A stretch of 64,000 bases of DNA, from NCBI GenBank assembly GCA_031418395.1, contig JANOXL010000242.1, positions 12 to 64,011 of the forward strand, in the 5' to 3' direction. This DNA is from Rhodoferax sp. Its GTDB lineage: Bacteria > Pseudomonadota > Gammaproteobacteria > Burkholderiales > Burkholderiaceae_C. Shown here piece after piece: positions 7,436-57,190 of this stretch. Both the position numbers and the translations under genes were made by a program. Positions within the stretch are counted from its first letter, which is position 1. Each line of letters opens with the position of its first letter. The notes under the pieces are model-generated. The model was given only the letters and a program-made list of their open reading frames with translations, did not search any database and had not been told where the DNA came from.

Positions 7436-8044
7436 TCAACTCTGCCGCGCATGTGACATGGGATCCGTGATTTCACCGCGCATCAAATATAGCGGCGCTT
7501 TATAGTAAAGCTTGATATCGTGAAATGGATCGGTAATGATCTTTGTGCCCCAAACCAATGCTGTCATCAGATTCTGTTGAATGCCCAGCTGGACCATACG
7601 AAACAAGAGGCCACCTGCGCCCAAGCCCAACCAGACCATCGCGACGATGCGCACGTATTCCCCAAAGGAGTTGTAGCCCTGGAAAAGGCCAAGCACGGTG
7701 GGGTCAAGCCAGACCAGGATGGGTGAAAACGCCCAAATACTCATAAACACCATTTTGCGGCGCAGGTTGTACCCCACCTTGATGTCTTCCTTGTGGGCAT
7801 GGGTCGCCTGGTTGACATGGTCGTAGTCATGCGGCTCAAAAAAGAAATGCCCGGCTTGGCGCGTGGTCATCGAAACCAGCCAGGCCAACAATGCAGAGAC
7901 CACCGGGTCAATGAAGAGCCAGATGTAGGCCGCGACAAAACAAAGTGCGCTGACAAGATGCAGCGACTGGTTAATCCGGTTGTGGTGGTAATAACGATGA
8001 TCATCCCATCGCTGCGTCTGCAGTTCTTTGAAAAAGTCTTTCAC
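7436..8044 (-). CDS. His-rich integral membrane protein, tentatively Mpo1-like/DUF962
   Basis: Four or five hydrophobic segments. HHNRINQSLH fits the H-x-N-x-x-N-x-x-x-H motif that I recall for DUF962. Second His cluster HFFFEPHDYDH. GTG start at 8044 is preceded by AAAGGA. The ORF track extends to 8284. Confidence 0.5.
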   Translation of the reverse strand: MKDFFKELQTQRWDDHRYYHHNRINQSLHLVSALCFVAAYIWLFIDPVVSALLAWLVSMTTRQAGHFFFEPHDYDHVNQATHAHKEDIKVGYNLRRKMVFMSIWAFSPILVWLDPTVLGLFQGYNSFGEYVRIVAMVWLGLGAGGLLFRMVQLGIQQNLMTALVWGTKIITDPFHDIKLYYKAPLYLMRGEITDPMSHARQS

Positions 8045-8171
8045 GCTAGTTCCTTTTGCTGGACGGTTGGATCTGCACACCGCCCAACCCGTTTGGTCGG
8101 TGTGTCTGGATGGTGACGGGAATTGATGAAAGTTTGGTGACTTTTTAGCGTGTTTTCGATGGGCACCCCTT

Positions 8172-8189
8172 TTGTCATAAAACTGTTGC
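8172..8189 (+). promoter_or_regulatory. Pho-box-like direct repeat (TTGTCAT-AAAA-CTGTTGC)
   Basis: 6/7 and 4/7 matches to CTGTCAT with the canonical 4-nt A-rich spacer. Lies 22 nt upstream of the GT4 ATG. Confidence 0.3.
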
Positions 8190-8211
8190 ATCACACTTTC
8201 ATGATGTCGGC

Positions 8212-9450
8212 ATGAACGAAATGAACTATCCGTTTTTCGAGGTGGGCGAGTTGGATTCAACGAAGCAACCCTGGCGGGTTGCAATGGTCAGCGAAACCTA
8301 TCCGCCCGAAGTCAATGGTGTCGCGCGCACCTTGCAACAGGTGGTGCAAGGCTTGCTGGATCGGGGTCACGACCTTCAACTGGTAAGGCCTCGGCAGGGA
8401 AAAGATGAGCGACCCGCTTCATCGCCAAATTTCAACGAAGTCTTGACGAAAGGATTGACGATTCCCATGTACCGTCACCTTCGAATGGGATTGCCATCCA
8501 AACGCACGCTGATGAAACTTTGGCAGGATAAGAGGCCAGCCCTTGTCCACATTGCCACCGAGGGCCCTCTCGGGTGGTCAGCACTTCGAGCAGCTACCGA
8601 GCTCAGATTGCCCGTCGTTTCCGACTTCCGAACAAATTTTCAGGCTTACGCGCAGTATTACGGTATCAGTTGGCTGCAAGGATCCACGATGGCTTATCTG
8701 CGTAGCTTTCACAACCAATGCAACCAGACGATGGTGCCGACCGAAGCTCTTCTTCAACAACTCTCCGGAAACGGGTTCAAACGACTCAAGGTGGTCGCCC
8801 GCGGTGTCGATACACTGAACTTCGCACCGACCAAACGCAGTCAGGGACTCCGCGAGAAATGGGGCGTTTACGGCGATGACGTCGCGGTTTTGCACGTGGG
8901 TCGACTTGCAGCCGAGAAGAACCTGGGCGTCTTGATCCGGGCCTACGACAAGATTCGCTCAGTGCAGCCCCGTGCGCGTCTGGTTGTGGTGGGCGACGGA
9001 CCTATGCGCGCCGAGCTTCAGGCGCAGTTTCCTCAAGCCTACTTTGCCGGCTTTCAATCAGGCGAAGCGCTGGCAGCTCACTATGCCTCTGGCGACATGT
9101 TTTTGTTTCCCAGTTTGACCGAGACCTATGGCAACGTAACGCCGGAAGCGATGGCCAGTGGTTTGGGCGTCGTTGCCTTTGATGACGCTGCTGCCGGTGA
9201 ATTGATCGAACATCGCAGCAACGGACTGCTTGCACCAAAGACCGACTCTGCTGCATTCGTCACTCTGGCAGCCGAGCTGGCCCGCAACGCCACCCTACGG
9301 CGTCAATACGGTGACCAGGCCCGCTCAACCGTTTTAGCGCACGGATGGAGTGAGATCGTGCGCAATGTTGAAGACGTTTATGCCAACGCCATCAAGCAGA
9401 GTCCTTTCTCCCTCGCCCATGATATTCGGTCGAGGCTGTTGCCGGTTTGA
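8212..9450 (+). CDS. GT4-family (GT-B, group 1) glycosyltransferase
   Basis: N-terminal VAMVSETYPPEVNGVA. C-terminal FLFPSLTETYGNVTPEAMASG contains the E-x7-E motif. Confidence 0.85.
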   Translation: MNEMNYPFFEVGELDSTKQPWRVAMVSETYPPEVNGVARTLQQVVQGLLDRGHDLQLVRPRQGKDERPASSPNFNEVLTKGLTIPMYRHLRMGLPSKRTLMKLWQDKRPALVHIATEGPLGWSALRAATELRLPVVSDFRTNFQAYAQYYGISWLQGSTMAYLRSFHNQCNQTMVPTEALLQQLSGNGFKRLKVVARGVDTLNFAPTKRSQGLREKWGVYGDDVAVLHVGRLAAEKNLGVLIRAYDKIRSVQPRARLVVVGDGPMRAELQAQFPQAYFAGFQSGEALAAHYASGDMFLFPSLTETYGNVTPEAMASGLGVVAFDDAAAGELIEHRSNGLLAPKTDSAAFVTLAAELARNATLRRQYGDQARSTVLAHGWSEIVRNVEDVYANAIKQSPFSLAHDIRSRLLPV

Positions 9451-41552: not shown

Positions 41553-42227
41553 ATGCGCGTATTGATTGCAGAAGACGACCAGGTCCTGGCGGACGGCCTG
41601 ATCCGTGCCTTGCGCAGCAGCGGCGCGGCAGTGGATCAGGTGGCCGATGGCTCGCAGGCCGATGCGGCGCTGATGACCAACACCGAGTTTGACCTTTTGA
41701 TCCTCGACCTGGGCCTGCCCAAGATGCACGGCCTGGAGGTGCTCAAACGCCTGCGCGCCCGCGGCTCCGTCTTGCCTGTGCTGATTTTGACAGCGGCTGA
41801 CTCGGTGGAGGAGCGCGTCAAAGGCCTCGATCTGGGCGCCGACGACTACATGGCCAAACCCTTCAGCCTGCAAGAGCTCGAAGCCCGTGCGCGCGCATTA
41901 ATGCGCCGAGGCGCGGGTGCCACCCACAACATCATCAAACACGGCCCGCTGACCTACGACCAAGCTGGCCGCGTGGCCACCATCGACGGCAAGATGGTCG
42001 ATCTCTCGGCGCGTGAGTTGGGCCTGTTGGAGGTGCTGCTGCAACGCACCGGCCGCCTGGTGAGCAAAGACCAGCTGGTCGAGCGCCTGTGTGAGTGGGG
42101 CGACGAGGTCAGCAACAATGCGATTGAGGTCTACATCCATCGCTTGCGCAAAAAGATTGAAAAAGGCCCGGTGCGCATCGCTACCGTGCGCGGTCTGGGC
42201 TACTGCCTGGAGAAAATCCCGGAGTAG
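41553..42227 (+). CDS. OmpR/PhoB-type response regulator
   Basis: MRVLIAEDD, phospho-acceptor LLILDLGLP, and a C-terminal winged-helix (IEVYIHRLRKKI, TVRGLGY). Confidence 0.92.
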   Translation: MRVLIAEDDQVLADGLIRALRSSGAAVDQVADGSQADAALMTNTEFDLLILDLGLPKMHGLEVLKRLRARGSVLPVLILTAADSVEERVKGLDLGADDYMAKPFSLQELEARARALMRRGAGATHNIIKHGPLTYDQAGRVATIDGKMVDLSARELGLLEVLLQRTGRLVSKDQLVERLCEWGDEVSNNAIEVYIHRLRKKIEKGPVRIATVRGLGYCLEKIPE

Positions 42228-42230
42228 GAT

Positions 42231-42482
42231 GCGGCCCCCACGCTTCCTCACTGCGTGTAGGCGCTGCCCCCCGAGGGGGCCGCATTTTGCCTTGGGGCGG
42301 CCCGGCGGCAAAACCTCCCCAAACAATTGGACTTGGTTCCTTATTTGACCCGCCTCCTTCAATCTTGTGCCAACGCACCCCGAATTGTGAATAGTCGCAA
42401 GTTTTTGCGCTGGGCCGCCCCAAGCAAAAATGCGGCCCCCTCGGGGGGCAGGAAGCCACACGCAGTGGGCGACCGTGGGGGC
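42231..42482. repeat. MITE-like element: about 72-nt imperfect terminal inverted repeats around an approximately 108-nt core
   Basis: Left arm 42231-42303 (GCCCCCACG...TGCCCCCCGAGGGGGCCGCATTTTGCCTTGGGGCGGCCC). Right arm 42412-42482 is its near reverse complement. Each arm holds its own GCCCCCC-GA-GGGGGC palindrome. Confidence 0.75.
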
Positions 42483-42489
42483 AAGTGCC

Positions 42490-43953
42490 ATGGCACTTAA
42501 TCTCTTCAAACGCGAGCAGCGTTCACTGTTTGGCGAAATTCTGGATTGGATGCTGACGCCGCTCTTGCTCTTGTGGCCGGTCAGCCTGGTCTTGACCTGG
42601 GTCGTCGCACAAGGCATCGCCGGCAAGCCGTTTGATCGCGCGCTGGAGTACAACGCCAGCGCGCTGGCGCAACTGGTTACCGTGCAAAGCGGGCGCATGC
42701 AGTTCAACTTGCCGCAGCCCGCGCGCGAACTGCTGCGGGCCGACGATACCGACACCATTTATTACCAGGTGTTGGGACTGCGGGGCGAATTTGTCAGTGG
42801 CGAGCGCGACTTGCCGCTGCCACCCGAGGGCGAGACCATCGTGCCTGGCGACGTACGTCTGCGTGACGATTCGCTCAAGGGCACGGATATCAAAGTCGCC
42901 TACACCTGGGTCAAGCCCGACCCGGCCAACCCGCGCCTGGCGCTGGTGCAAGTCGCCGAGACGCTGGAAAAACGCTCGGTGTTGGCCACCGAAATTATCA
43001 AAGGGGTGATGCTGCCGCAGTTTGTCATCCTGCCGCTGGCCGTGCTCTTGATCTGGCTGGCGCTGGCGCAGGCGATCAAACCGCTGCAACAACTGGAGGC
43101 GCGCATCCGTGCGCGCCGCCCGGATGACATGAGCCCGCTGGACATCGAGGAGGTGCCGCTGGAGATCGCGCCGATGGCCTCCAGCGTGAATGATTTGCTG
43201 ATGCGCCTCAAAGACTCGATCACCACGCAAAAACGATTCCTTGCTGACGCCGCCCACCAGCTCAAAACCCCGCTGGCGGGTTTGCGCATGCAGGCCGAGC
43301 TGGCGCTGCGCGAGGGCGCGAATACCGAGCAGTTGAAGCTCTCTTTGCGGCAAATTGGGCGTAGCAGCATCCGCGCCACCCACACCGTGAATCAGTTGCT
43401 GGCCCTGGCACGCGCCGAAGGTAGCGGTACCGCGATGACGCGCCAAAGCTGCGATTTGGTCAAGCTCACCACCGAGGTGATTCAGGACAGCGTGCCGCAT
43501 GCGCTGGACAAACATATCGATCTCGGATTCGAAGGTGTGGCGGCAGGCGCCCCCGGCGTGCAGGTCGACGGCAACCCGACCTTGCTCAAGGAGATGCTGC
43601 GTAACCTGATCGACAACGCCATCGCTTACACGCCGTCGAGCCGGGAGAAACCAGGGGTGATCACCGTGCGGGTACTGGTCGATGCGGTGGCGCAGACGAC
43701 TTCACTGCAAGTGGACGATTCCGGGCCCGGCATTGCGCTGGCGGAGCGCGAGTTGGTGTTTGAACCGTTTTATCGCGCTTTGGGTAACGACGCGGATGGC
43801 TCGGGTCTGGGGCTGCCCATCGTTCGTGAGATTGCCGGCCACCACCTGGCCGACGTCACGGTGGGCGAGGTGTGGCCAGGGCAGGTGCCGCCCGGCGCCC
43901 GGTTCACCGTGCGGTTTCGTTGGAGCGGCGTCAGCCTTGAGCCGTCGGGTTAG
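42490..43953 (+). CDS. Sensor histidine kinase (TctE/2CSK_N-like periplasmic sensor)
   Basis: H-box FLADAAHQLKTPL, N-box LIDNAIAYT, G-box DSGPGI...GSGLGL. Start placed at MALNLFK, so the IR-derived 5' extension is excluded. Confidence 0.88.
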   Translation: MALNLFKREQRSLFGEILDWMLTPLLLLWPVSLVLTWVVAQGIAGKPFDRALEYNASALAQLVTVQSGRMQFNLPQPARELLRADDTDTIYYQVLGLRGEFVSGERDLPLPPEGETIVPGDVRLRDDSLKGTDIKVAYTWVKPDPANPRLALVQVAETLEKRSVLATEIIKGVMLPQFVILPLAVLLIWLALAQAIKPLQQLEARIRARRPDDMSPLDIEEVPLEIAPMASSVNDLLMRLKDSITTQKRFLADAAHQLKTPLAGLRMQAELALREGANTEQLKLSLRQIGRSSIRATHTVNQLLALARAEGSGTAMTRQSCDLVKLTTEVIQDSVPHALDKHIDLGFEGVAAGAPGVQVDGNPTLLKEMLRNLIDNAIAYTPSSREKPGVITVRVLVDAVAQTTSLQVDDSGPGIALAERELVFEPFYRALGNDADGSGLGLPIVREIAGHHLADVTVGEVWPGQVPPGARFTVRFRWSGVSLEPSG

Positions 43954-44074: not shown

Positions 44075-44725
44075 TTACCGACAAGCGCGCAAGGGTTTGC
44101 CGCCCAAGAGCGGCTTCAAGTCTTCCACTTTCGGGCGCAGGGCATCGTCCACAGCGGCCAGTTTCAGTATCCAGGATTTCACGTCTTCCCGCTCCTGCAC
44201 CACTTTTGCGGTGCGCACACCGCGTTTACTCAAGGTTGCCAGAGTGGCTTCAGCAGCGTCTTTGGACGGGAAACCACCCAATGACAAACCGGGCTCCAAA
44301 GCGGCGTTGTTGAGCGGTTCAAACTTCAGGTTCAGTTGCGAAAGTTCAGAGCGTTTGGCCGCCAGCGCCTGGGCGTTGGGGTATTTGCCCATGTAAACGA
44401 TCCAGCGACCTGGCTCGGTGGCGGCATCGAGCTCCCAGGTACCTGCGGGCAGGTTGGATTCGAGGATGCGACGCAGTGCCTGACTTTGGTTTTCGTCAAA
44501 ACCACTTGCCGTCAGGCACTCGGGTGCTCGCGCGGGTGTGGCGTCGGCGCGCGGCGCCTCGTCAGCCCGCAAAACACGGATGCCTTCAGGCTTGATCTGC
44601 TGCGCCAGGCGTTGTGGTTCAGCCACTTCCACTGGGGCGTAACCATAGGCCTTGAGCATGCCTTGTGACCAGGCGAAATAAACGCCATTGGCCAACACGA
44701 GCAATAAAACCAGAAATCTCAGCAT
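44075..44725 (-). CDS. SPOR-domain membrane-anchored protein
   Basis: N-terminal anchor MLRFLVLLLVLANGVYFAW. C-terminal SPOR-like GGFPSKDAAEATLATLSKRGVRTAKVV. Confidence 0.65.
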   Translation of the reverse strand: MLRFLVLLLVLANGVYFAWSQGMLKAYGYAPVEVAEPQRLAQQIKPEGIRVLRADEAPRADATPARAPECLTASGFDENQSQALRRILESNLPAGTWELDAATEPGRWIVYMGKYPNAQALAAKRSELSQLNLKFEPLNNAALEPGLSLGGFPSKDAAEATLATLSKRGVRTAKVVQEREDVKSWILKLAAVDDALRPKVEDLKPLLGGKPLRACR

Positions 44726-44727
44726 GA

Positions 44728-45642
44728 TTAGTTTTGACGGGGCAGGGCGGGTGGGCAGGCGGCGCCTTGCGGGCGCACGCTGACTTCGGAACTGCTGATT
44801 TTTACCACGCATTGCGCCGTTTCCACCCGCAATGCGCCATTTTCGTCAACACCCAGCGCCGTGCCGCTTTGGCCATCGCTTAGCGTAACTGCTACGCCCA
44901 TCAAGGCATCCAACGCATTAAAGCCGCCTTGCAAGGCCGCAAAACCTGCTTTTTCAAATGTTTTCACCGTGGCCACCAAAGGCGGCAAGACGCGCTGCAG
45001 GGCGTCTGCGGCATCCAGTAGTGGGTCTAGTTCGGCCAGCCAGGCGGGTGGTGTAGCCAGCCCATCCGCTGTGCGCGGTGCGATATTGATGCCGATACCG
45101 ATCACGGCAAACCGCCCCGGCCCGCCGGCGCCTTCCAGGCCACCTGCAGGGCTGCCCGAATGGCCATCGGTGTAGGCCGTGTTGGGCGCGATGGTTTCAA
45201 TCAAAATGCCGCCGAGTTTGCGTTGTGCCAGCCACAGGTCATTGGGCCATTTCAGGCGCACATCGGCATGTAAGTGTCGCGCCACCGCCAAACCCACTGC
45301 GAGTGACAGGCCTGACCAACTCACCGGCGACAACATGAGCCCCAGTGAGAACATTAGCGTCGAAGGCTCATTCGGTCTGCCGTCGTCCAGCCAAGTGCGG
45401 CCCAGACGCCCGCGCCCAGCGGTTTGATGCTCGGCGACAAGCAGGATCGGATCAAGCTGGCCTGATCTGGCGCGGCGCATCAGCTCGGAGTTGGTCGAGT
45501 CGATTTGCGGGAGGATTTCGACGGTAAACCCAGGCAAGTCAGGCGCCACTTGTTCCCAAATCGCCTCAGCAACCCATTTCACGTCAATTACCGCCCGCGT
45601 TTGGGCGCCAGCAAAGTGCCCCGGCAATTCCTGGCGCCGCAC
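44728..45642 (-). CDS. birA: Biotin--[acetyl-CoA-carboxylase] ligase (start uncertain; GTG at 45582 would avoid overlap with the SET gene)
   Basis: QIDSTNSEL and TAGRGRLGRTW (GRGRxGRxW) biotin-ligase motif. No N-terminal HTH evident. Confidence 0.85.
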   Translation of the reverse strand: MRRQELPGHFAGAQTRAVIDVKWVAEAIWEQVAPDLPGFTVEILPQIDSTNSELMRRARSGQLDPILLVAEHQTAGRGRLGRTWLDDGRPNEPSTLMFSLGLMLSPVSWSGLSLAVGLAVARHLHADVRLKWPNDLWLAQRKLGGILIETIAPNTAYTDGHSGSPAGGLEGAGGPGRFAVIGIGINIAPRTADGLATPPAWLAELDPLLDAADALQRVLPPLVATVKTFEKAGFAALQGGFNALDALMGVAVTLSDGQSGTALGVDENGALRVETAQCVVKISSSEVSVRPQGAACPPALPRQN

Positions 45643-46076
45643 CAGCAGGGGTATTCGGCCTTGAGTTTGGGCGTGTAACGCTCGTCGATGATCAGACCAT
45701 AGTCGTAATTCAACTCTTCGCCGGCCTTGATGTTGCGCAGCGCCTTGATGAAGACGCGGCCACCTTCTTCATCGGCTTCGCAGTTTGGATTGCAGGCGTG
45801 GTTGATCCAGCGTGAGGAGTTGCCGCCAAACAGCGCGTCGATGACATGTTTTTCATCGATGTGAAAATAAAAAGTGTGGTTGGGGTCTTTTGGGTCGTGC
45901 GGGTGGCGCGCCTGCGCGGCCTTCCAGGTGACGATTTCGCCCACATATTCGATGATGGTTTCGCCTTCGGCAATGTCTTGGATGGCAAACACGCCTTTGC
46001 CATGCACACCAGAGCGGCGGGTTTGGATGCGGCGGTTGTCACCGGGCGCGGGTTTCTTGCTCAATTTCTGGGTCAC
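45588..46076 (-). CDS. SET-domain protein (putative protein-lysine N-methyltransferase)
   Basis: GKGVFA, RWINHACNPNC, ELNYDY and a post-SET-like CWCGARNCRG. Confidence 0.88.
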   Translation of the reverse strand: MTQKLSKKPAPGDNRRIQTRRSGVHGKGVFAIQDIAEGETIIEYVGEIVTWKAAQARHPHDPKDPNHTFYFHIDEKHVIDALFGGNSSRWINHACNPNCEADEEGGRVFIKALRNIKAGEELNYDYGLIIDERYTPKLKAEYPCWCGARNCRGTLLAPKRGR

Positions 46077-46314
46077 AAAAGAATCCTGAATAAATGCTGC
46101 TGAAAATATTGGGGCAAGCGCGAGTGGGGCGAAAAGGGCCCGTTGGGGCCTGTTAGGGCGTATGGGGGCAGAAATTGGGGCAGATTAGAAGGGATTTGCC
46201 GTCGCGCCGAAAAATTTGTTATTGTGAATCGTATGCGTGTGCGCCTGCGTGTGCGTGTGCGCACGCGAGAGGCTGGATTGTAGTCATGGCATTTTTGGAT
46301 ACTGAATTCGAATT

Positions 46315-49293
46315 ATGAAAACACTGGTAATTGCTGAAAAACCATCGGTCGCGCAGGACATCGTGCGTTCGCTCACGCCCACAGCGGGCAAGTTCGAAAA
46401 ACACGACGAGCATTTTGAGAACGACACCTACATCGTGACCAGCGCCGTCGGCCATTTGGTGGAGATCGCTGCGCCGGAAGAGTTTGACGTGAAACGCGGC
46501 AAGTGGAGCTTTGCCCATCTGCCGGTGATCCCGCCCCACTTTGACTTGAAGCCGCACGACAAAACCAAGACGCGCCTGAACGCCATCGTCAAGCAAGCCA
46601 AACGCAAAGACGTGGACGCTTTTGTCAACGCCTGCGACGCCGGGCGCGAAGGGGAACTGATCTTCCGCTTGATCCAGCAGTACAGCAAGGTGAAACTGCC
46701 TGTGAGCCGCCTGTGGTTGCAGTCAATGACGCCGCAGGCGATCCGTGACGGGTTTGCCAATCTGCGCACCGACAAACAAATGTTGCCGCTGGCCGACGCC
46801 GCGCGTTGCCGCTCTGAGGCCGACTGGCTGGTTGGCATCAACGGCACCCGGGCCATGACGGCCTTTAACTCGCGCGACGGTGGCTTCTTTTTGACCACCG
46901 TGGGCCGGGTGCAAACGCCAACGCTCTCTGTCGTGGTGGAGCGCGAGGAACAAATCCGAAAATTCATCAGCCGCGACTACTGGGAGATTCACGCCACCTT
47001 TGCAGCCCAAGCGGGCCAGTACCCGGCCAAGTGGTTCGACCCGAAGTGGAGCAAGGCGGCTGCCAATGCAGCGGCCGGCAATACCGATGAGCCGGACGCG
47101 GAGCTGAAAGCTGATCGTTTATGGTCCGCTCGTGATGCGCAAAAAATCGCTGACGCCGTGCGCGGCCAAAGTGCGACGGTCACTGAAGAAAGCAAACCGA
47201 CCTCACAAGCCTCACCTGCCCTGTTTGACTTGACCAGTTTGCAGCGCGAAGCCAACGGCAAGTTTGGTTACTCTGCCAAGACCACCCTCTCCATCGCGCA
47301 AAGCCTGTATGAGCGCCACAAGGCCCTGACCTACCCGCGGACTGACTCGCGCGCCTTGCCGGAAGACTACGTGCCGGTGGTCAAAGACACGTTAGGGATG
47401 TTGGCCAAAAGCGCCATGAAACACCTCGCGCCCTTTGCCGCGCAGGCGGTGAAAGGCAACTACGTCAAACCGTCCAAGCGTATTTTTGACAACAGCAAGG
47501 TCAGCGACCACTTCGCCATCATCCCCACGCTGCAAGAACCCAGCGGGCTATCAGAAGCAGAGCAGAAAGTTTATGACCTGGTGGTGCGGCGCTTCATGGC
47601 GGTGTTTTTCCCGAGCGCTGAATATGAGGTGACGACTCGTGTTTCTGTCGCGGCGGGTCACAGTTTCAAAACCGAAGGCAAGGTGCTCGTGAAACCCGGC
47701 TGGCTGGCCATTTACGGCAAAGAAGCCGCCGATGAAGTGGCCGACGCCAAAGACGGCGACAAAGGCCAAAGCCTGGTGCCGGTCGCGCCCGGTGAAAAGG
47801 TCAAAACCGAAGAAGCCGAGGCGAAGGGCCTCAAAACCCGGCCACCCGCCAGGTATTCCGAAGCCACGCTTTTGGGCGCCATGGAAAACGCCGGCAAAAC
47901 CGTGGAAGACGACGACTTGCGCGCCGCCATGCACGAGAAGGGCCTGGGCACGCCGGCCACGCGCTCCAGCATCATCGAGGGTCTGATTGCCGAGAAATAC
48001 ATGCTGCGCGAAGGTCGCGAACTGATCCCGACCGCCAAGGCCTTCCAACTGATGACGCTGCTTCGCGGCCTGGGTGTGGAAGAGTTGTCCAAAGCCGAAC
48101 TCACCGGCGAATGGGAATACAAGCTCAATCAGATGGAGCACGGCCAGTTGAGCCGCGAGACCTTCATGGCCGAGATCGCCGCCATGACCGAACGCATGGT
48201 CAAAAAGGCCAAGGAATACGACCGCGACACCATTCCTGGTGATTACGCGACCCTGGCCGCGCCGTGCCCCAACTGCGGCGGCATCGTGAAGGAAAACTAC
48301 CGCCGCTACACCTGCACCGGCAAAAGCGGCGCTGAAGACGGCTGCGGCTTTTCGTTTGGCAAAACCCCCGCGGGCCGCACCTTTGAAGTAGCCGAGGTCG
48401 AGCAGTTCCTGCGCGACAAAAAAATCGGCCCACTCGATGGTTTTCGCTCCAAAGCGGGTTGGCCCTTCACCGCCGAAATGGTCATCAAATACGACGACGA
48501 GGCCAAAAACTTCAAACTCGAATTCGACTTTGGCGACGACAAAAAGGGCGAAGAGTCGGGCGAGATCATCGATTTTTCGACCCAGGAAACGCTGGGCAAA
48601 TGCCCCAAATGTGGCACCACCACCGGTGGCCACGTGTTCGAGCACGGCAAGAACTACGTGTGCGACAAGTCAGTGCCCACACTCGCGCAACCTATTCCCA
48701 GTTGCGACTTCAAGACCGGTCAAGTCATTCTGCAGCAACCTGTGGTGCGGGAACAGATGGTCAAGCTGTTGACCACCGGCAAGACCGACCTGCTGGACAA
48801 GTTCGTCTCCATGCGTACGCGCCGTGGTTTCAAGGCCATGCTGGCCTGGGACGCCGAAGCCGGAAAAGTGAACTTCGAGTTCGCGCCGAGCAAATTCCCG
48901 CCGCGCAAACCCGCCGCGGGTGCCGCAGCGCGGCCCGCTGGCAGTGCGGCCAAAACTGCGGTCGCAGCGAAAAGCACCAAAGCCGCCAAAACGCCGACTA
49001 AAAAAGCTGCAGTCACCAAAACGGCCGCACCGCGCAAAGCGGCGGTGAAAAAGGCCTCCACCGCGACCGGTCTACAGCCCAGCGCCGCTTTAGCCGCCGT
49101 GATCGGCCCCGAAGCTGTGGCCCGGCCGCAGGTGATCAAAAAACTGTGGGATTACATCAAGGCCAACGGCCTGCAAGACGCCGCCAACAAACGCAACGTC
49201 AACGCCGACGCCAAACTGCTGGCCGTGTTTGGCAAACCGCAAGTCACGATGTTTGAGCTGGCCGGGATTGTGGGCAAACACCTCAGCGTTTGA
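46315..49293 (+). CDS. topB: DNA topoisomerase III with C-terminal Zn-ribbon repeats, Lys/Ala-rich tail and SWIB/MDM2 domain
   Basis: TOPRIM start MKTLVIAEKPSVA. Catalytic-Tyr block LTYPRTDSR. CPNCGG and CPKCG zinc ribbons. Tail AKSTKAAKTPTKKAAVTKTAAPRKAAVKK (about 48895-49071). Terminal 73 aa VIKKLWDYIKANGLQD...FELAGIVGKHL are SWIB-like (49072-49290). Confidence 0.88.
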   Translation: MKTLVIAEKPSVAQDIVRSLTPTAGKFEKHDEHFENDTYIVTSAVGHLVEIAAPEEFDVKRGKWSFAHLPVIPPHFDLKPHDKTKTRLNAIVKQAKRKDVDAFVNACDAGREGELIFRLIQQYSKVKLPVSRLWLQSMTPQAIRDGFANLRTDKQMLPLADAARCRSEADWLVGINGTRAMTAFNSRDGGFFLTTVGRVQTPTLSVVVEREEQIRKFISRDYWEIHATFAAQAGQYPAKWFDPKWSKAAANAAAGNTDEPDAELKADRLWSARDAQKIADAVRGQSATVTEESKPTSQASPALFDLTSLQREANGKFGYSAKTTLSIAQSLYERHKALTYPRTDSRALPEDYVPVVKDTLGMLAKSAMKHLAPFAAQAVKGNYVKPSKRIFDNSKVSDHFAIIPTLQEPSGLSEAEQKVYDLVVRRFMAVFFPSAEYEVTTRVSVAAGHSFKTEGKVLVKPGWLAIYGKEAADEVADAKDGDKGQSLVPVAPGEKVKTEEAEAKGLKTRPPARYSEATLLGAMENAGKTVEDDDLRAAMHEKGLGTPATRSSIIEGLIAEKYMLREGRELIPTAKAFQLMTLLRGLGVEELSKAELTGEWEYKLNQMEHGQLSRETFMAEIAAMTERMVKKAKEYDRDTIPGDYATLAAPCPNCGGIVKENYRRYTCTGKSGAEDGCGFSFGKTPAGRTFEVAEVEQFLRDKKIGPLDGFRSKAGWPFTAEMVIKYDDEAKNFKLEFDFGDDKKGEESGEIIDFSTQETLGKCPKCGTTTGGHVFEHGKNYVCDKSVPTLAQPIPSCDFKTGQVILQQPVVREQMVKLLTTGKTDLLDKFVSMRTRRGFKAMLAWDAEAGKVNFEFAPSKFPPRKPAAGAAARPAGSAAKTAVAAKSTKAAKTPTKKAAVTKTAAPRKAAVKKASTATGLQPSAALAAVIGPEAVARPQVIKKLWDYIKANGLQDAANKRNVNADAKLLAVFGKPQVTMFELAGIVGKHLSV

Positions 49294-55490: not shown

Positions 55491-57190
55491 GCGAGTTCTT
55501 CCGGAAAATATTTGATGACGCAATCCACCGGGTTGGGCGCGGCTTGCCCCAGGCCACAAATCGACGCGTCGCGCATCACTTGCGAGAGATCCGCCAAAAG
55601 CGGCAAGTCCCACTTCGGTTGACTGATCAGATGCGCGGCTTTGGCGGTGCCAACGCGGCACGGTGTGCATTGACCGCAGGACTCATGCTGAAAGAAGTTC
55701 ATCATATTGCGCGCCGCCTGTGAGGCCGTGTCTTGGTCAGACAACACGATCACCGCCGCCGAACCGATGAAACAACCGTAGGGCTGCAGGGTGTCGAAGT
55801 CCAGCGGAATCTGGTTCATGCTGGCCGGCAAAATGCCGCCCGAGGCGCCGCCGGGTAAATAGCCGTAGAACTTTTGACCGTCCAGCATGCCACCGCAATA
55901 TTCGTCGATGAGTTCCTGAATCGTGATGCCGGCCGGGGCGAGTTTCACGCCCGGATTTTTCACACGGCCTGAGACTGAGAACGAACGCAGACCTTTACGC
56001 CCGTTGCGCCCTTGGGCGGTAAACCAGGCCGCGCCTTTTTCCAGGATGTCGCGCACCCAATAAAGCGTTTCGAAGTTGTGCTCCAACGTCGGGCGGCCGA
56101 ACAGGCCGACCTGCGCCACATAAGGCGGGCGCAGGCGCGGCATGCCGCGTTTGCCTTCGATGGACTCGATCATGGCGGACTCTTCGCCGCAAATGTAGGC
56201 CCCCGCACCCCGGCGCAGTTCAATGTGCGGCATATGGGGCATGGGCGGTTTGGCCTGGATCTTGGCGAGCTCTGCTTCGAGCAAGTTGCGGCACCCGTGG
56301 TACTCGTCACGCAAATAAACGTAGATTTTGTCAATGCCCACGGCCCACGCTGCGATCAACATACCTTCGATAAAACGGTGCGGGTCGCGCTCCAGGTAGA
56401 CGCGGTCTTTGAAGGTGCCGGGTTCGCCCTCGTCAATATTGATGGCCATCAGACGGGGGCCTTTTTCGGCCTTGACGATGCGCCACTTGCGCCCCGTGGG
56501 GAAACCCGCGCCGCCCAGGCCGCGCAGGCTGGAATCTTCCATGGTTTTTAGAACAGATTCGACACCACGCTCGCCGCTGGTACAGCTTTTGAGCAGGGTA
56601 TATCCGCCGCTGGCTTCATAGGCCGCCAGATCGGTGTAGGCTTCTGGCTGATGTTGCACCGCTTTGGCTTGCGCATTGGCCACGACGGCATCCAACGTCG
56701 CATGGGGCACGGGGTTTTGCCCCACCACCGCGGCTGGTGCTTGTTCACACCGGCCAATACACGGCGCGGCGATCACCCGCACCTCGCGGCCCAACAAGCC
56801 TGGCAATTTAGCCAGCAGATCTTGCGCGCCAGCCATCTCACACGAGAGCCCATCACACACGCGCACGGTCAGGGGTGCAGGCGCGGCTTCACCTTCTTTG
56901 ACGACGTCGAAGTGGTGATAAAACGTGGCGACCTCATACACCGAGGTTTGCGGCAGGCGCATTTCCTGCGCCAGCGCCGCCAGATGGGCGGCTGACAAAT
57001 GGCCGTACCGATCCTGGATTTTGTGCAGATGTTCGATCAGCAGATCGTTTTGGCGGGAACTGTTTCCCAACAAGGCTTGCACCTGGGCCAAGGCCTGCGG
57101 CTCGACGCGACGTCCTTTGGGGGCTTGGCGCTTGCGCTCGCGCACGTCAGCCGCGTTGGCCAACACAATGGGAATAACGGGATGGTTCAT
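55487..57190 (-). CDS. fdsB: Formate dehydrogenase beta subunit (fused NuoE-like 2Fe-2S and NuoF-like NAD/FMN module)
   Basis: YEVATFYHHF and CDGLSC...CIGRCEQAP (NuoE-like). GGAGFPTGRKW and ESCGQCTPCR (NuoF-like). Confidence 0.88.
   Translation of the reverse strand: MNHPVIPIVLANAADVRERKRQAPKGRRVEPQALAQVQALLGNSSRQNDLLIEHLHKIQDRYGHLSAAHLAALAQEMRLPQTSVYEVATFYHHFDVVKEGEAAPAPLTVRVCDGLSCEMAGAQDLLAKLPGLLGREVRVIAAPCIGRCEQAPAAVVGQNPVPHATLDAVVANAQAKAVQHQPEAYTDLAAYEASGGYTLLKSCTSGERGVESVLKTMEDSSLRGLGGAGFPTGRKWRIVKAEKGPRLMAINIDEGEPGTFKDRVYLERDPHRFIEGMLIAAWAVGIDKIYVYLRDEYHGCRNLLEAELAKIQAKPPMPHMPHIELRRGAGAYICGEESAMIESIEGKRGMPRLRPPYVAQVGLFGRPTLEHNFETLYWVRDILEKGAAWFTAQGRNGRKGLRSFSVSGRVKNPGVKLAPAGITIQELIDEYCGGMLDGQKFYGYLPGGASGGILPASMNQIPLDFDTLQPYGCFIGSAAVIVLSDQDTASQAARNMMNFFQHESCGQCTPCRVGTAKAAHLISQPKWDLPLLADLSQVMRDASICGLGQAAPNPVDCVIKYFPEELA

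Follow-up and report, generated by a model that had tools for sequence, protein, structure and literature searches.

A SET-domain methyltransferase gene paired with topB across a candidate Z-DNA-prone shared promoter in Comamonadaceae-type Burkholderiales

The locus considered here lies in a 64,000-nt stretch of DNA from Rhodoferax sp. (GCA_031418395.1, contig JANOXL010000242.1, forward strand 12-64,011), which is referred to throughout as the window. Within it, the gene for a SET-domain protein stands back to back with topB, the gene for topoisomerase III, and the TopB protein ends in Zn ribbons, a Lys/Ala-rich tail resembling histone H1 and a SWIB domain (Table 1). An initial annotation had read all of these features from the letters of the sequence, and each of them was recovered: the SET motifs NHACNPNC and ELNYDY and the post-SET Cys cluster are present in the translation, the two genes lie on opposite strands across 238 bp, and the tail and the domains on either side of it are found where they had been described. 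The pairing of the two genes recurs in all 80 species-level loci recovered from Comamonadaceae and allied Burkholderiales, and the short region that separates them holds a conserved hexamer and a conserved tract of alternating purines and pyrimidines.

One genome per species was scanned with a profile of diverse SET homologues and the best 80 loci were retained. All of these belong to Comamonadaceae or allied Burkholderiales (Rhodoferax, Polaromonas, Acidovorax, Variovorax, Hydrogenophaga, Limnohabitans, Comamonas, Ramlibacter, Melaminivora, Hylemonella, Rhizobacter, Ideonella, Piscinibacter and Caldimonas are included), the host species are mostly free-living, aquatic and soil organisms, and the SET proteins are 67-93% identical to that of the window. 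In all 80 species loci topB is adjacent to SET and divergent from it. The same arrangement extends to three more distant homologues, whose identities were taken by tblastn against the window SET protein. At 61% identity (locus L089) SET faces a gene for a 1016-aa TopB-SWIB and at 59% (L082) one for a frameshifted TopB without SWIB, in both cases with birA after SET; at 58% (L084) it faces a gene for a 973-aa TopB-SWIB in a setting where both flanks are occupied by other genes, birA being missing and a UbiH-like flavoprotein gene standing after SET instead. The adjacency of SET and topB, for which the initial annotation had called for a synteny survey, is thus borne out by the 80 loci and by these three. 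Further from the pair, a sensor kinase gene is kept in 34 of 55 testable loci and a LivK-like gene beyond topB in 8 of 60; the topB-SET-birA core is far more stable than the genes that surround it.

The SET protein is as conserved as the catalytic core of TopB. Over 68 species the mean identity to the window proteins is 76% for SET, 78% for the TopB catalytic core and 50% for BirA, and the divergences of SET and TopB co-vary (Spearman 0.74). Such figures are those of a core gene that is inherited vertically, and comparison across these species places SET as such a gene, apparently under strong constraint, in Comamonadaceae-type Burkholderiales. Effectors are typically patchy and island-borne. 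The description of the domains as eukaryote-like, made when the locus was first read, therefore stands for their identity and falls for their origin: the term fits the domains, and not where they came from.

Table 1. Features of the SET-topB locus, with positions counted in the window.
Feature	Position	Strand	Basis or remark
SPOR-like membrane-anchored protein, third operon gene	44075-44725	-	weak Pfam SPOR match, 18.9 bits, below cut-off of 21
birA, biotin-protein ligase without N-terminal repressor domain, second operon gene	44728-45582	-	Pfam BPL_LplA_LipB and BPL_C
SET-domain protein lysine methyltransferase (predicted), 162 aa	45588-46076	-	Pfam SET, PDB sequence matches, AF2 and Foldseek
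Divergent promoter region SET/topB (candidate)	46077-46314	.	238 bp here; median about 119 bp in relatives
Alternating purine-pyrimidine tract, CG/CA/TG steps	46230-46267	.	15 nt and 22 nt, with one out-of-phase base between
TACAAT hexamer (ATTGTA on the plus strand), candidate -10 of the SET operon	46277-46282	-	found in 73 of 81 intergenic regions
10-codon upstream open reading frame, MAFLDTEFEL	46286-46318	+	starts 3 nt from the hexamer; TGA overlaps the topB ATG (ATGA)
topB catalytic core, residues 1-640 (Toprim and type IA domain)	46315-48234	+	Pfam Topoisom_bac 9.2e-113, Toprim; TYPRTDS motif
TopB C-terminal Zn-ribbon/Toprim_Crpt repeats, residues 641-861	48235-48897	+	Toprim_Crpt 8.2e-33 over two stretches; weak Zn_ribbon_PADR1
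TopB Lys/Ala/Thr/Pro-rich basic tail, residues 862-919	48898-49071	+	predicted disordered; SPKK-like APRK motif
TopB SWIB/MDM2 domain, residues 921-990, then stop codon	49075-49293	+	Pfam SWIB 1.6e-23; AF2; Foldseek

On the evidence of sequence and predicted structure, the SET protein is a minimal SET1/MLL-like lysine methyltransferase core with a post-SET Cys cluster, predicted to be catalytically competent. Its translation (45588-46076) carries WINHACNPNC, GEELNYDYG and CWCGARNCRG, and the Pfam SET profile (PF00856) is matched over 105 of its 105 positions (88.2 bits against a cut-off of 22.4, 5.6e-25). The closest solved structures by sequence are yeast SET1 and human MLL1-4 (E about 1e-25, 35-40% identity), and the residues that bind S-adenosylmethionine and those of catalysis align with their counterparts in SET1 and MLL1. 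An AlphaFold (AF2) model built on 41 diverse homologues reached a predicted local distance difference test score (pLDDT) of 88.1, and its top Foldseek match in the PDB is the SET domain of MLL1 (2w5z; E 3.7e-14, template-modelling score 0.72), so that the fold also is MLL1-like. The motifs GxG (HGKG), NHACNPN and ELNYDY are all there and occupy columns that are invariant or at least 90% conserved among 41 diverse and 26 close homologues, with H25, G26, G28, N92, H93, C95, Y126, C144, C146 and C151 invariant or nearly so. The post-SET zinc cluster, which is made up of CxCx4C and the Cys of NHxC, is complete (C144 and C146 invariant; C95 and C151 at least 90% conserved). The core of the protein is acidic, with a pI of 5.6, and both of its ends are basic. 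The nearest named NCBIfam model is that of the Dot/Icm effector AnkI/LegAS4 (NF043024), which is matched in the SET core only, at 41 bits against a cut-off of 550; ankyrin repeats were not found in the NCBIfam and hidden Markov model (HMM) comparison, and a search of PHROGs gave only a marginal match to a family without known function.

The partner gene, topB, is an open reading frame of 992 codons for amino acids (46315-49293, plus strand) whose translation carries the active-site motif LTYPRTDS. The protein scores 563.6 bits against TIGR01056 (topB; cut-off 515.75), and NCBIfam NF011313 (PRK14724, topoisomerase III; cut-off 1088) is matched end to end, over positions 2-988 of 988 with the SWIB domain included, and gives 1973.6 bits. 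Sequence profile and predicted fold both assign the C-terminal module to SWIB, as had been proposed. PF02201 is matched at 82.7 bits against a cut-off of 25, and in an AF2 model of the last 109 residues the SWIB domain is confident (pLDDT 83-90) and the tail disordered (pLDDT below 50-52). The top Foldseek match of the domain in the PDB is 1v31, an Arabidopsis SWIB/MDM2 domain (E 2e-7, root-mean-square deviation 1.1 Å), and across 1v31, 1uhr and the BAF60 SWIB domain the E-values run from 2e-7 to 1e-4 and the deviations from 1.1 to 1.5 Å.

Among the 30-aa segments of all reading frames in the 64-kb window, the tail itself, AKSTKAAKTPTKKAAVTKTAAPRKAAVKKAS, is alone in being rich in Lys and Ala. 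Each complete SET-adjacent TopB has such a tail after the Zn-ribbon region, 11-74 aa in length, and this is also the case where the SWIB domain is missing. Across 69 tails the composition is 36% Ala, 23% Lys, 11% Thr and 9% Pro, with Asp and Glu together at 0.8%, and an SPKK-like [AT]PR[KR] motif is found in 47 of the 69. The likeness to H1 is one of composition only, the Pfam search of TopB having reported no match to the Hc1 or HC2 HMM. SWIB is less widespread than the tail, being found in 57 of 63 testable relatives and missing from six; TopBs with a tail and no SWIB occur in Rhizobacter, Ideonella, Piscinibacter, Caldimonas and some others, and those without SWIB fit NF006032 (PRK08173) best. 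A search with the combined tail and SWIB returned mostly fragments at contig ends, and was used for alignment and not for distribution. The C-terminus as a whole, with its Zn ribbons, H1-like tail and, usually, SWIB domain, is read as a putative module that anchors TopB to the nucleoid or to a partner.

Promoter features were counted over 81 topB-SET intergenic regions. The TACAAT hexamer, taken as a candidate -10 for the SET operon, reads GATTGT on the other strand, where it is a candidate -10 for topB, and the -11A and -7T of the two readings are symmetric. The hexamer may thus be a shared, symmetric and bidirectional -10 element for topB and the SET operon, a layout that predicts start sites 18 bp apart, with the start on the topB strand falling on a conserved ATG. 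Of 73 loci, 34 have such an ATG at a distance of 3-5 nt from the motif, and in these it is the topB start itself (17), the beginning of a short in-frame N-terminal extension (15) or the start of an upstream open reading frame (2), which implies an overlap of promoter and start signals. The arrangement suggests that in Rhodoferax-like genera the topB mRNA is leaderless and that, in the window, there is translational coupling through the upstream open reading frame, of which a 6-codon equivalent with the same ATGA overlap occurs in locus L002. In other genera topB has a leader of 40-60 nt. In Polaromonas-type loci (L010, L033, L034 and L045) a gene for a redoxin of thioredoxin fold (about 180 aa, WCPFC) has been inserted between the promoter and topB in the orientation of topB, and the hexamer and the tract described below remain together beside SET despite the insertion.

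Other signals were sought in this region. A consensus promoter and terminator scan gave nothing above chance, no LexA box was seen by eye in the topB-SET intergenic region, and Rfam gave no match at E up to 1 over 45900-46500. The intergenic region of the window is some 120 bp longer than the median, and the extra part (46100-46190) contains about five TGGGGC-type repeats: TTGGGGCAAG, GTGGGGCGAA, TTGGGGCCTG, TGGGGGCAGA and TTGGGGCAGA.

Beside the hexamer lies a tract in which purines and pyrimidines alternate, and which is also present between topB and SET in L001-L084 and L089. The longest alternating run per intergenic region has a median of 24 nt and a maximum of 47; in shuffled sequence the median is 7, the 95th percentile 11 and the maximum 18, and 73 of the 81 regions lie above that 95th percentile. 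Runs of at least 19 nt number 69 within 11.8 kb of topB-SET intergenic sequence and one in the remaining 1.02 Mb or so of the 80 loci (1.03 Mb in all). In 40 of 63 loci the tract begins at a distance of 7-10 nt from TACAAT. Its commonest steps are GC/CG, followed by CA/AC and then TG/GT, with few TA. The alternation is kept from locus to locus while the actual sequence varies, and readings of the tract as a palindrome, operator, cruciform or RNA stem were rejected, the folding energy being no lower than that of shuffles which keep the alternation (mean z -0.23). It is therefore the alternation itself that is conserved.

Alternating CG/CA tracts are classic formers of Z-DNA under negative supercoiling (PMC13463272). 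The tract is thus a candidate for a Z-DNA-prone, supercoil-sensing element, which would adopt the Z form and might affect expression of the genes beside it. A 2026 review notes that direct evidence for structure-based, supercoiling-sensitive regulation in bacteria is still limited, and a tract of this kind next to a topoisomerase gene is a rare and phylogenetically supported candidate for it. An earlier proposal that the tract travels with topB, which arose from a 16-nt run upstream of topB in L092, was withdrawn, as that run is short and L088 has none. The only other alternating run of at least 14 nt in the window is at 56854-56867 (CACACACGCGCACG).

On its other side SET is followed by birA and a SPOR-like gene. 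BirA scores 131.5 bits with the NCBIfam model birA_ligase (cut-off 83.1); its likely start is the GTG at 45582, 5 nt past the SET stop codon, and that of the SPOR-like protein is the ATG at 44725, 2 nt past the stop codon of birA. The gap between SET and birA is 6 nt in Rhodoferax ferrireducens T118. Among testable loci birA lies directly 3' of SET in 73 of 73, and the SPOR-like gene is found downstream in 59 of 69. These narrow gaps, together with the constancy of birA, give good support to the view, raised as a possibility in the initial annotation, that the three genes are probably co-transcribed as one operon. Next to the operon, at 41553-43953 in the window, lie genes for an OmpR-type response regulator and a sensor kinase, the latter of 2CSK_N/HisKA type in relatives. 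The pair adjoins the SPOR-like gene in 34 of 55 loci, and in Hydrogenophaga-type loci it has moved to the far side of topB.

What a SET methyltransferase does in a free-living bacterium, which has neither histones nor a host, has been open for some twenty years, and published work has centred on secreted effectors. What, then, is the significance of a SET gene that has settled beside a topoisomerase gene whose product carries an H1-like tail? The reading preferred here, which is offered tentatively and as possible rather than probable, is that the SET protein works within the bacterial cell, where it would be expressed together with TopB and would methylate tails that are rich in Lys and bind DNA, with that of TopB as the leading candidate. 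The initial annotation had named the TopB tail as a plausible substrate, an interpretation that is supported in part. In this scheme topB and the SET operon, lying back to back, would share the one symmetric -10 (TACAAT/GATTGT), and the tract 7-10 nt away would leave the two units co-expressed and possibly sensitive to supercoiling. TopB would be held to the nucleoid or to a partner by its tail and usually its SWIB domain. The SET enzyme would then methylate Lys/Ala-rich tails in the cell, that of TopB first among them, and methylation would adjust the affinity of the tail for DNA or block a competing acylation of its lysines.

An internal role with TopB as substrate is favoured by the universality of the tail, by the stability of the pair (including in L084, where the genes on both flanks are different), by the matching conservation and co-variation of SET and the TopB core, by the promoter features, by H1-like tails within the SET family itself and by precedent. 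As to the family, 18 of 116 representatives carry a Lys-rich, H1-like N- or C-terminal extension of their own (for instance P0130, P0143, P0156, P0204 and P0269, within P0122-P0270, and L094 at 8001-8675), and the N-terminal tail of P0156 weakly matches Pfam HC2, the chlamydial histone-like protein. The presence of H1-like tails on both TopBs and SET homologues would agree with SET enzymes of this family acting on Lys-rich segments that bind DNA, or next to them. As to precedent, chlamydial cpnSET is reported to methylate Hc1 and Hc2, and BaSET to methylate H1 (PMC7819608, PMC3980110), and E. coli TopA is regulated by lysine acetylation, according to a reference listed in PMC12445093.

Several observations weigh against this reading. 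The first is a sister lineage of uncultured Burkholderiaceae (L088, L092, L093, L096 and L097), in which SET is 56-60% identical and the genes are arranged in a second way. Here topB and SET are on the same strand, 3-6 unrelated genes intervene and the distance is 4.6-7.3 kb. After smg and topB come 1-3 genes, then HDOD in the opposite orientation, then a gene for a 690-710-aa membrane protein with a spermidine-synthase-like C-terminus and, after 0-1 further gene, SET; in L092 the membrane protein gene is directly upstream of SET, with a gap of 36 nt. In this lineage TopB belongs to the PRK08173 type, its tail is basic and SWIB is missing, and a reading of the topoisomerase after smg in L088 as TopA was rejected on the NCBIfam result, which assigned it to that type. 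The spacing looks like the decay of an ancestral gene order.

At SET identities of 54% or below by tblastn, no topoisomerase was found near the gene in the contexts examined, which comprise a Paraburkholderia integrative element, a Gemmatimonadota locus after lon, a dacA-ybeD-lipB housekeeping cluster, one more unrelated context, and the plasmids and phage contig of the mobile branch described below; homologues at 51% identity or below lie among unrelated genes. The link of SET to topB is thus confined to a single large clade, in which one arrangement keeps the two genes tightly together and the sister arrangement only loosely. To the same side of the balance belong the linkage of SET to birA, which at 73 of 73 is as tight as that to topB; the independence of the adjacency from SWIB, which 6 of 63 TopBs lack; and the fact that SET and topB are divergent and not co-transcribed. 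Type IA topoisomerases in general often carry basic tails, so that the tail of TopB need not be a substrate of SET, and the Lys-rich tails found on other SET proteins could serve secreted effectors as nuclear localisation signals.

The more distant homologues include a mobile branch of the family at some 49-54% identity, found on plasmids (L090, L091), on an island resembling an integrative and conjugative element (L085) and on a phage-like contig (L095) with primase, helicase, HNH and Acb2/Tad1-like genes. In PLSDB, SET homologues are present on 64 plasmid records from Paraburkholderia, Burkholderia and Caballeronia, 16 of them conjugative. On plasmid BTHE68_p2 an HU gene and a gene for a 'DNA-binding protein' stand just upstream of the SET homologue.

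Equally strong as the methylation of TopB, and judged to come near an even chance without reaching it, is an explanation in which no tie of enzyme to substrate exists. The pairing would then be inherited gene order, held in place by a compact bidirectional promoter that is hard to split and is perhaps tuned by the Z-DNA-prone tract, and SET would methylate other proteins. The architecture described above argues for it, since a conserved promoter supplies a purely cis-regulatory reason for the back-to-back order: the intergenic region is short, with about 119 bp as its median length, the hexamer and the tract are conserved at a fixed distance, 34 of 73 loci have the topB-strand ATG at 3-5 nt from the motif, and the redoxin insertion in Polaromonas leaves motif and tract together. 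The main arguments are the looser linkage of the sister lineage and the equally tight linkage of SET to birA. What inherited order does not readily account for is that L084 keeps the pair though both flanks have been replaced, that every adjacent TopB has a Lys/Ala tail, and that the SET family is repeatedly tied to H1-like Lys-rich segments, for which there is precedent as substrates.

An unlikely alternative is that SET works with its own operon, modifying for instance a Lys-bearing protein of biotinylation, the envelope or division, with topB as a mere neighbour. The 5-nt and 2-nt gaps, the constancy of birA (73 of 73) and of the SPOR-like gene (59 of 69) and the position of birA after SET in L089 and L082 speak for it. 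It is nevertheless weakened by L084, which keeps topB and has the UbiH-like flavoprotein gene in place of birA, and by BirA, which diverges much faster than SET (50% against 76% identity); moreover, we know of no biochemical link between a SET protein and biotin ligase in bacteria. Least likely of all, and very improbable, is that SET is a secreted effector in the manner of BtSET or LegAS4, its place beside topB being irrelevant, for although AnkI/LegAS4 is the nearest named model (over the SET core only), eukaryotic H3K4 and H3K36 methyltransferases are the nearest structures, family members occur on Burkholderia and Paraburkholderia plasmids and BtSET is reported as a type III effector that acts on H3K4 (PMC3980110, PMC7819608), the SET of the window scores 41 bits against the 550 of NF043024, lacks ankyrin repeats, heads a housekeeping operon with birA, was found at one fixed locus in all 80 recovered species, is as conserved as the TopB core with which it co-diverges, and has no secretion-system genes nearby in any locus examined.

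If methylation of the TopB tail is taken together with the promoter, a larger proposal follows, for which the expectation is low: a supercoil-responsive, chromatin-like circuit in which the Z-DNA-prone tract would sense negative supercoiling and set the joint expression of TopB and SET, and SET would methylate the TopB tail and so tune its affinity for DNA or its binding to partners. Were it true, such a circuit would show what the SET proteins that are widespread in free-living bacteria do within the cell, and would be a first phylogenetically conserved candidate for gene control by Z-DNA in bacteria. Short of that, the locus provides a strongly conserved core SET gene and a concrete candidate substrate, with Variovorax, Acidovorax and Rhodoferax ferrireducens T118 among the relatives that are open to genetic work.

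How does this locus compare with systems that are already known? The nearest parallels are two from Chlamydia and, as set out below, plastid SWIB-4. The chlamydial cpnSET/NUE is a bacterial SET enzyme that is reported to methylate DNA-binding proteins of Lys/Ala-rich, H1-like kind, Hc1 and Hc2. As with chlamydial TopA, in which a C-terminal SWIB domain follows Zn-binding repeats (PMC12445093), a type IA topoisomerase ends in SWIB after such repeats. The chlamydial case differs in that the topoisomerase here is TopB, the H1-like segment lies within the topoisomerase, the hosts are free-living Betaproteobacteria, and the SET gene is adjacent and may share a promoter. The model for the TopA/SWI fusion (NF004966) gives the window TopB 191.2 bits against a cut-off of 868, so that TopB is not a member of that family and the architecture is analogous. 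The same 2025 paper holds TopA with SWIB to be absent outside Chlamydia, and it has been said in print that topoisomerases with a SWIB domain, or SWIB proteins of bacteria generally, occur in Chlamydiae alone (PMC12445093, PMC4154389). With TopB-SWIB in 57 of 63 testable Comamonadaceae-type loci that statement is contradicted: type IA topoisomerases that carry SWIB also exist outside Chlamydia, which corrects the recent literature. The models NF011313 (PRK14724) and NF006032 (PRK08173) already name the betaproteobacterial topoisomerase III, and NF011313 covers the SWIB domain; the function of tail and SWIB, and the SET neighbour, are undescribed there.

The SET protein shares with the eukaryotic SET1/MLL (KMT2) enzymes the GxG, NHxCxPN and ELxYDY motifs and the CxCx4C post-SET cluster, at 35-40% identity, and differs from them in being a stand-alone protein of 162 aa, without WRAD-type partners or further domains, in bacteria without histones. 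With the effectors LegAS4/RomA, BtSET and BaSET it has in common the catalytic domain, which in those proteins prefers Lys-rich, basic substrates; unlike them it is a core gene of a housekeeping operon at a fixed locus, has no ankyrin repeats and falls far under the cut-off of the effector model. A further likeness is to plastid SWIB-4, in which an H1-like motif stands beside SWIB and which is reported to bind and compact DNA and to complement an E. coli hns mutant (PMC4154389): in both a Lys-rich, H1-like segment is followed by SWIB, whereas the module here is fused to a topoisomerase. Finally, the bidirectional bacterial promoters described by Warman, Grainger and colleagues have a symmetric shared -10 with divergent starts most often 18 bp apart (PMC12825309). 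The symmetric -11A and -7T of TACAAT/GATTGT, as read from the letters, resemble this class, of which the adjoining alternating tract is not a part. The literature search found no paper that mentions both topoisomerase III and SWIB, and none that describes the pairing of SET with topB or the promoter tract. The parts of the locus themselves belong to known families; what is new is the conserved pairing of SET with topB, the universal tail and the Z-DNA-prone candidate for a shared promoter.

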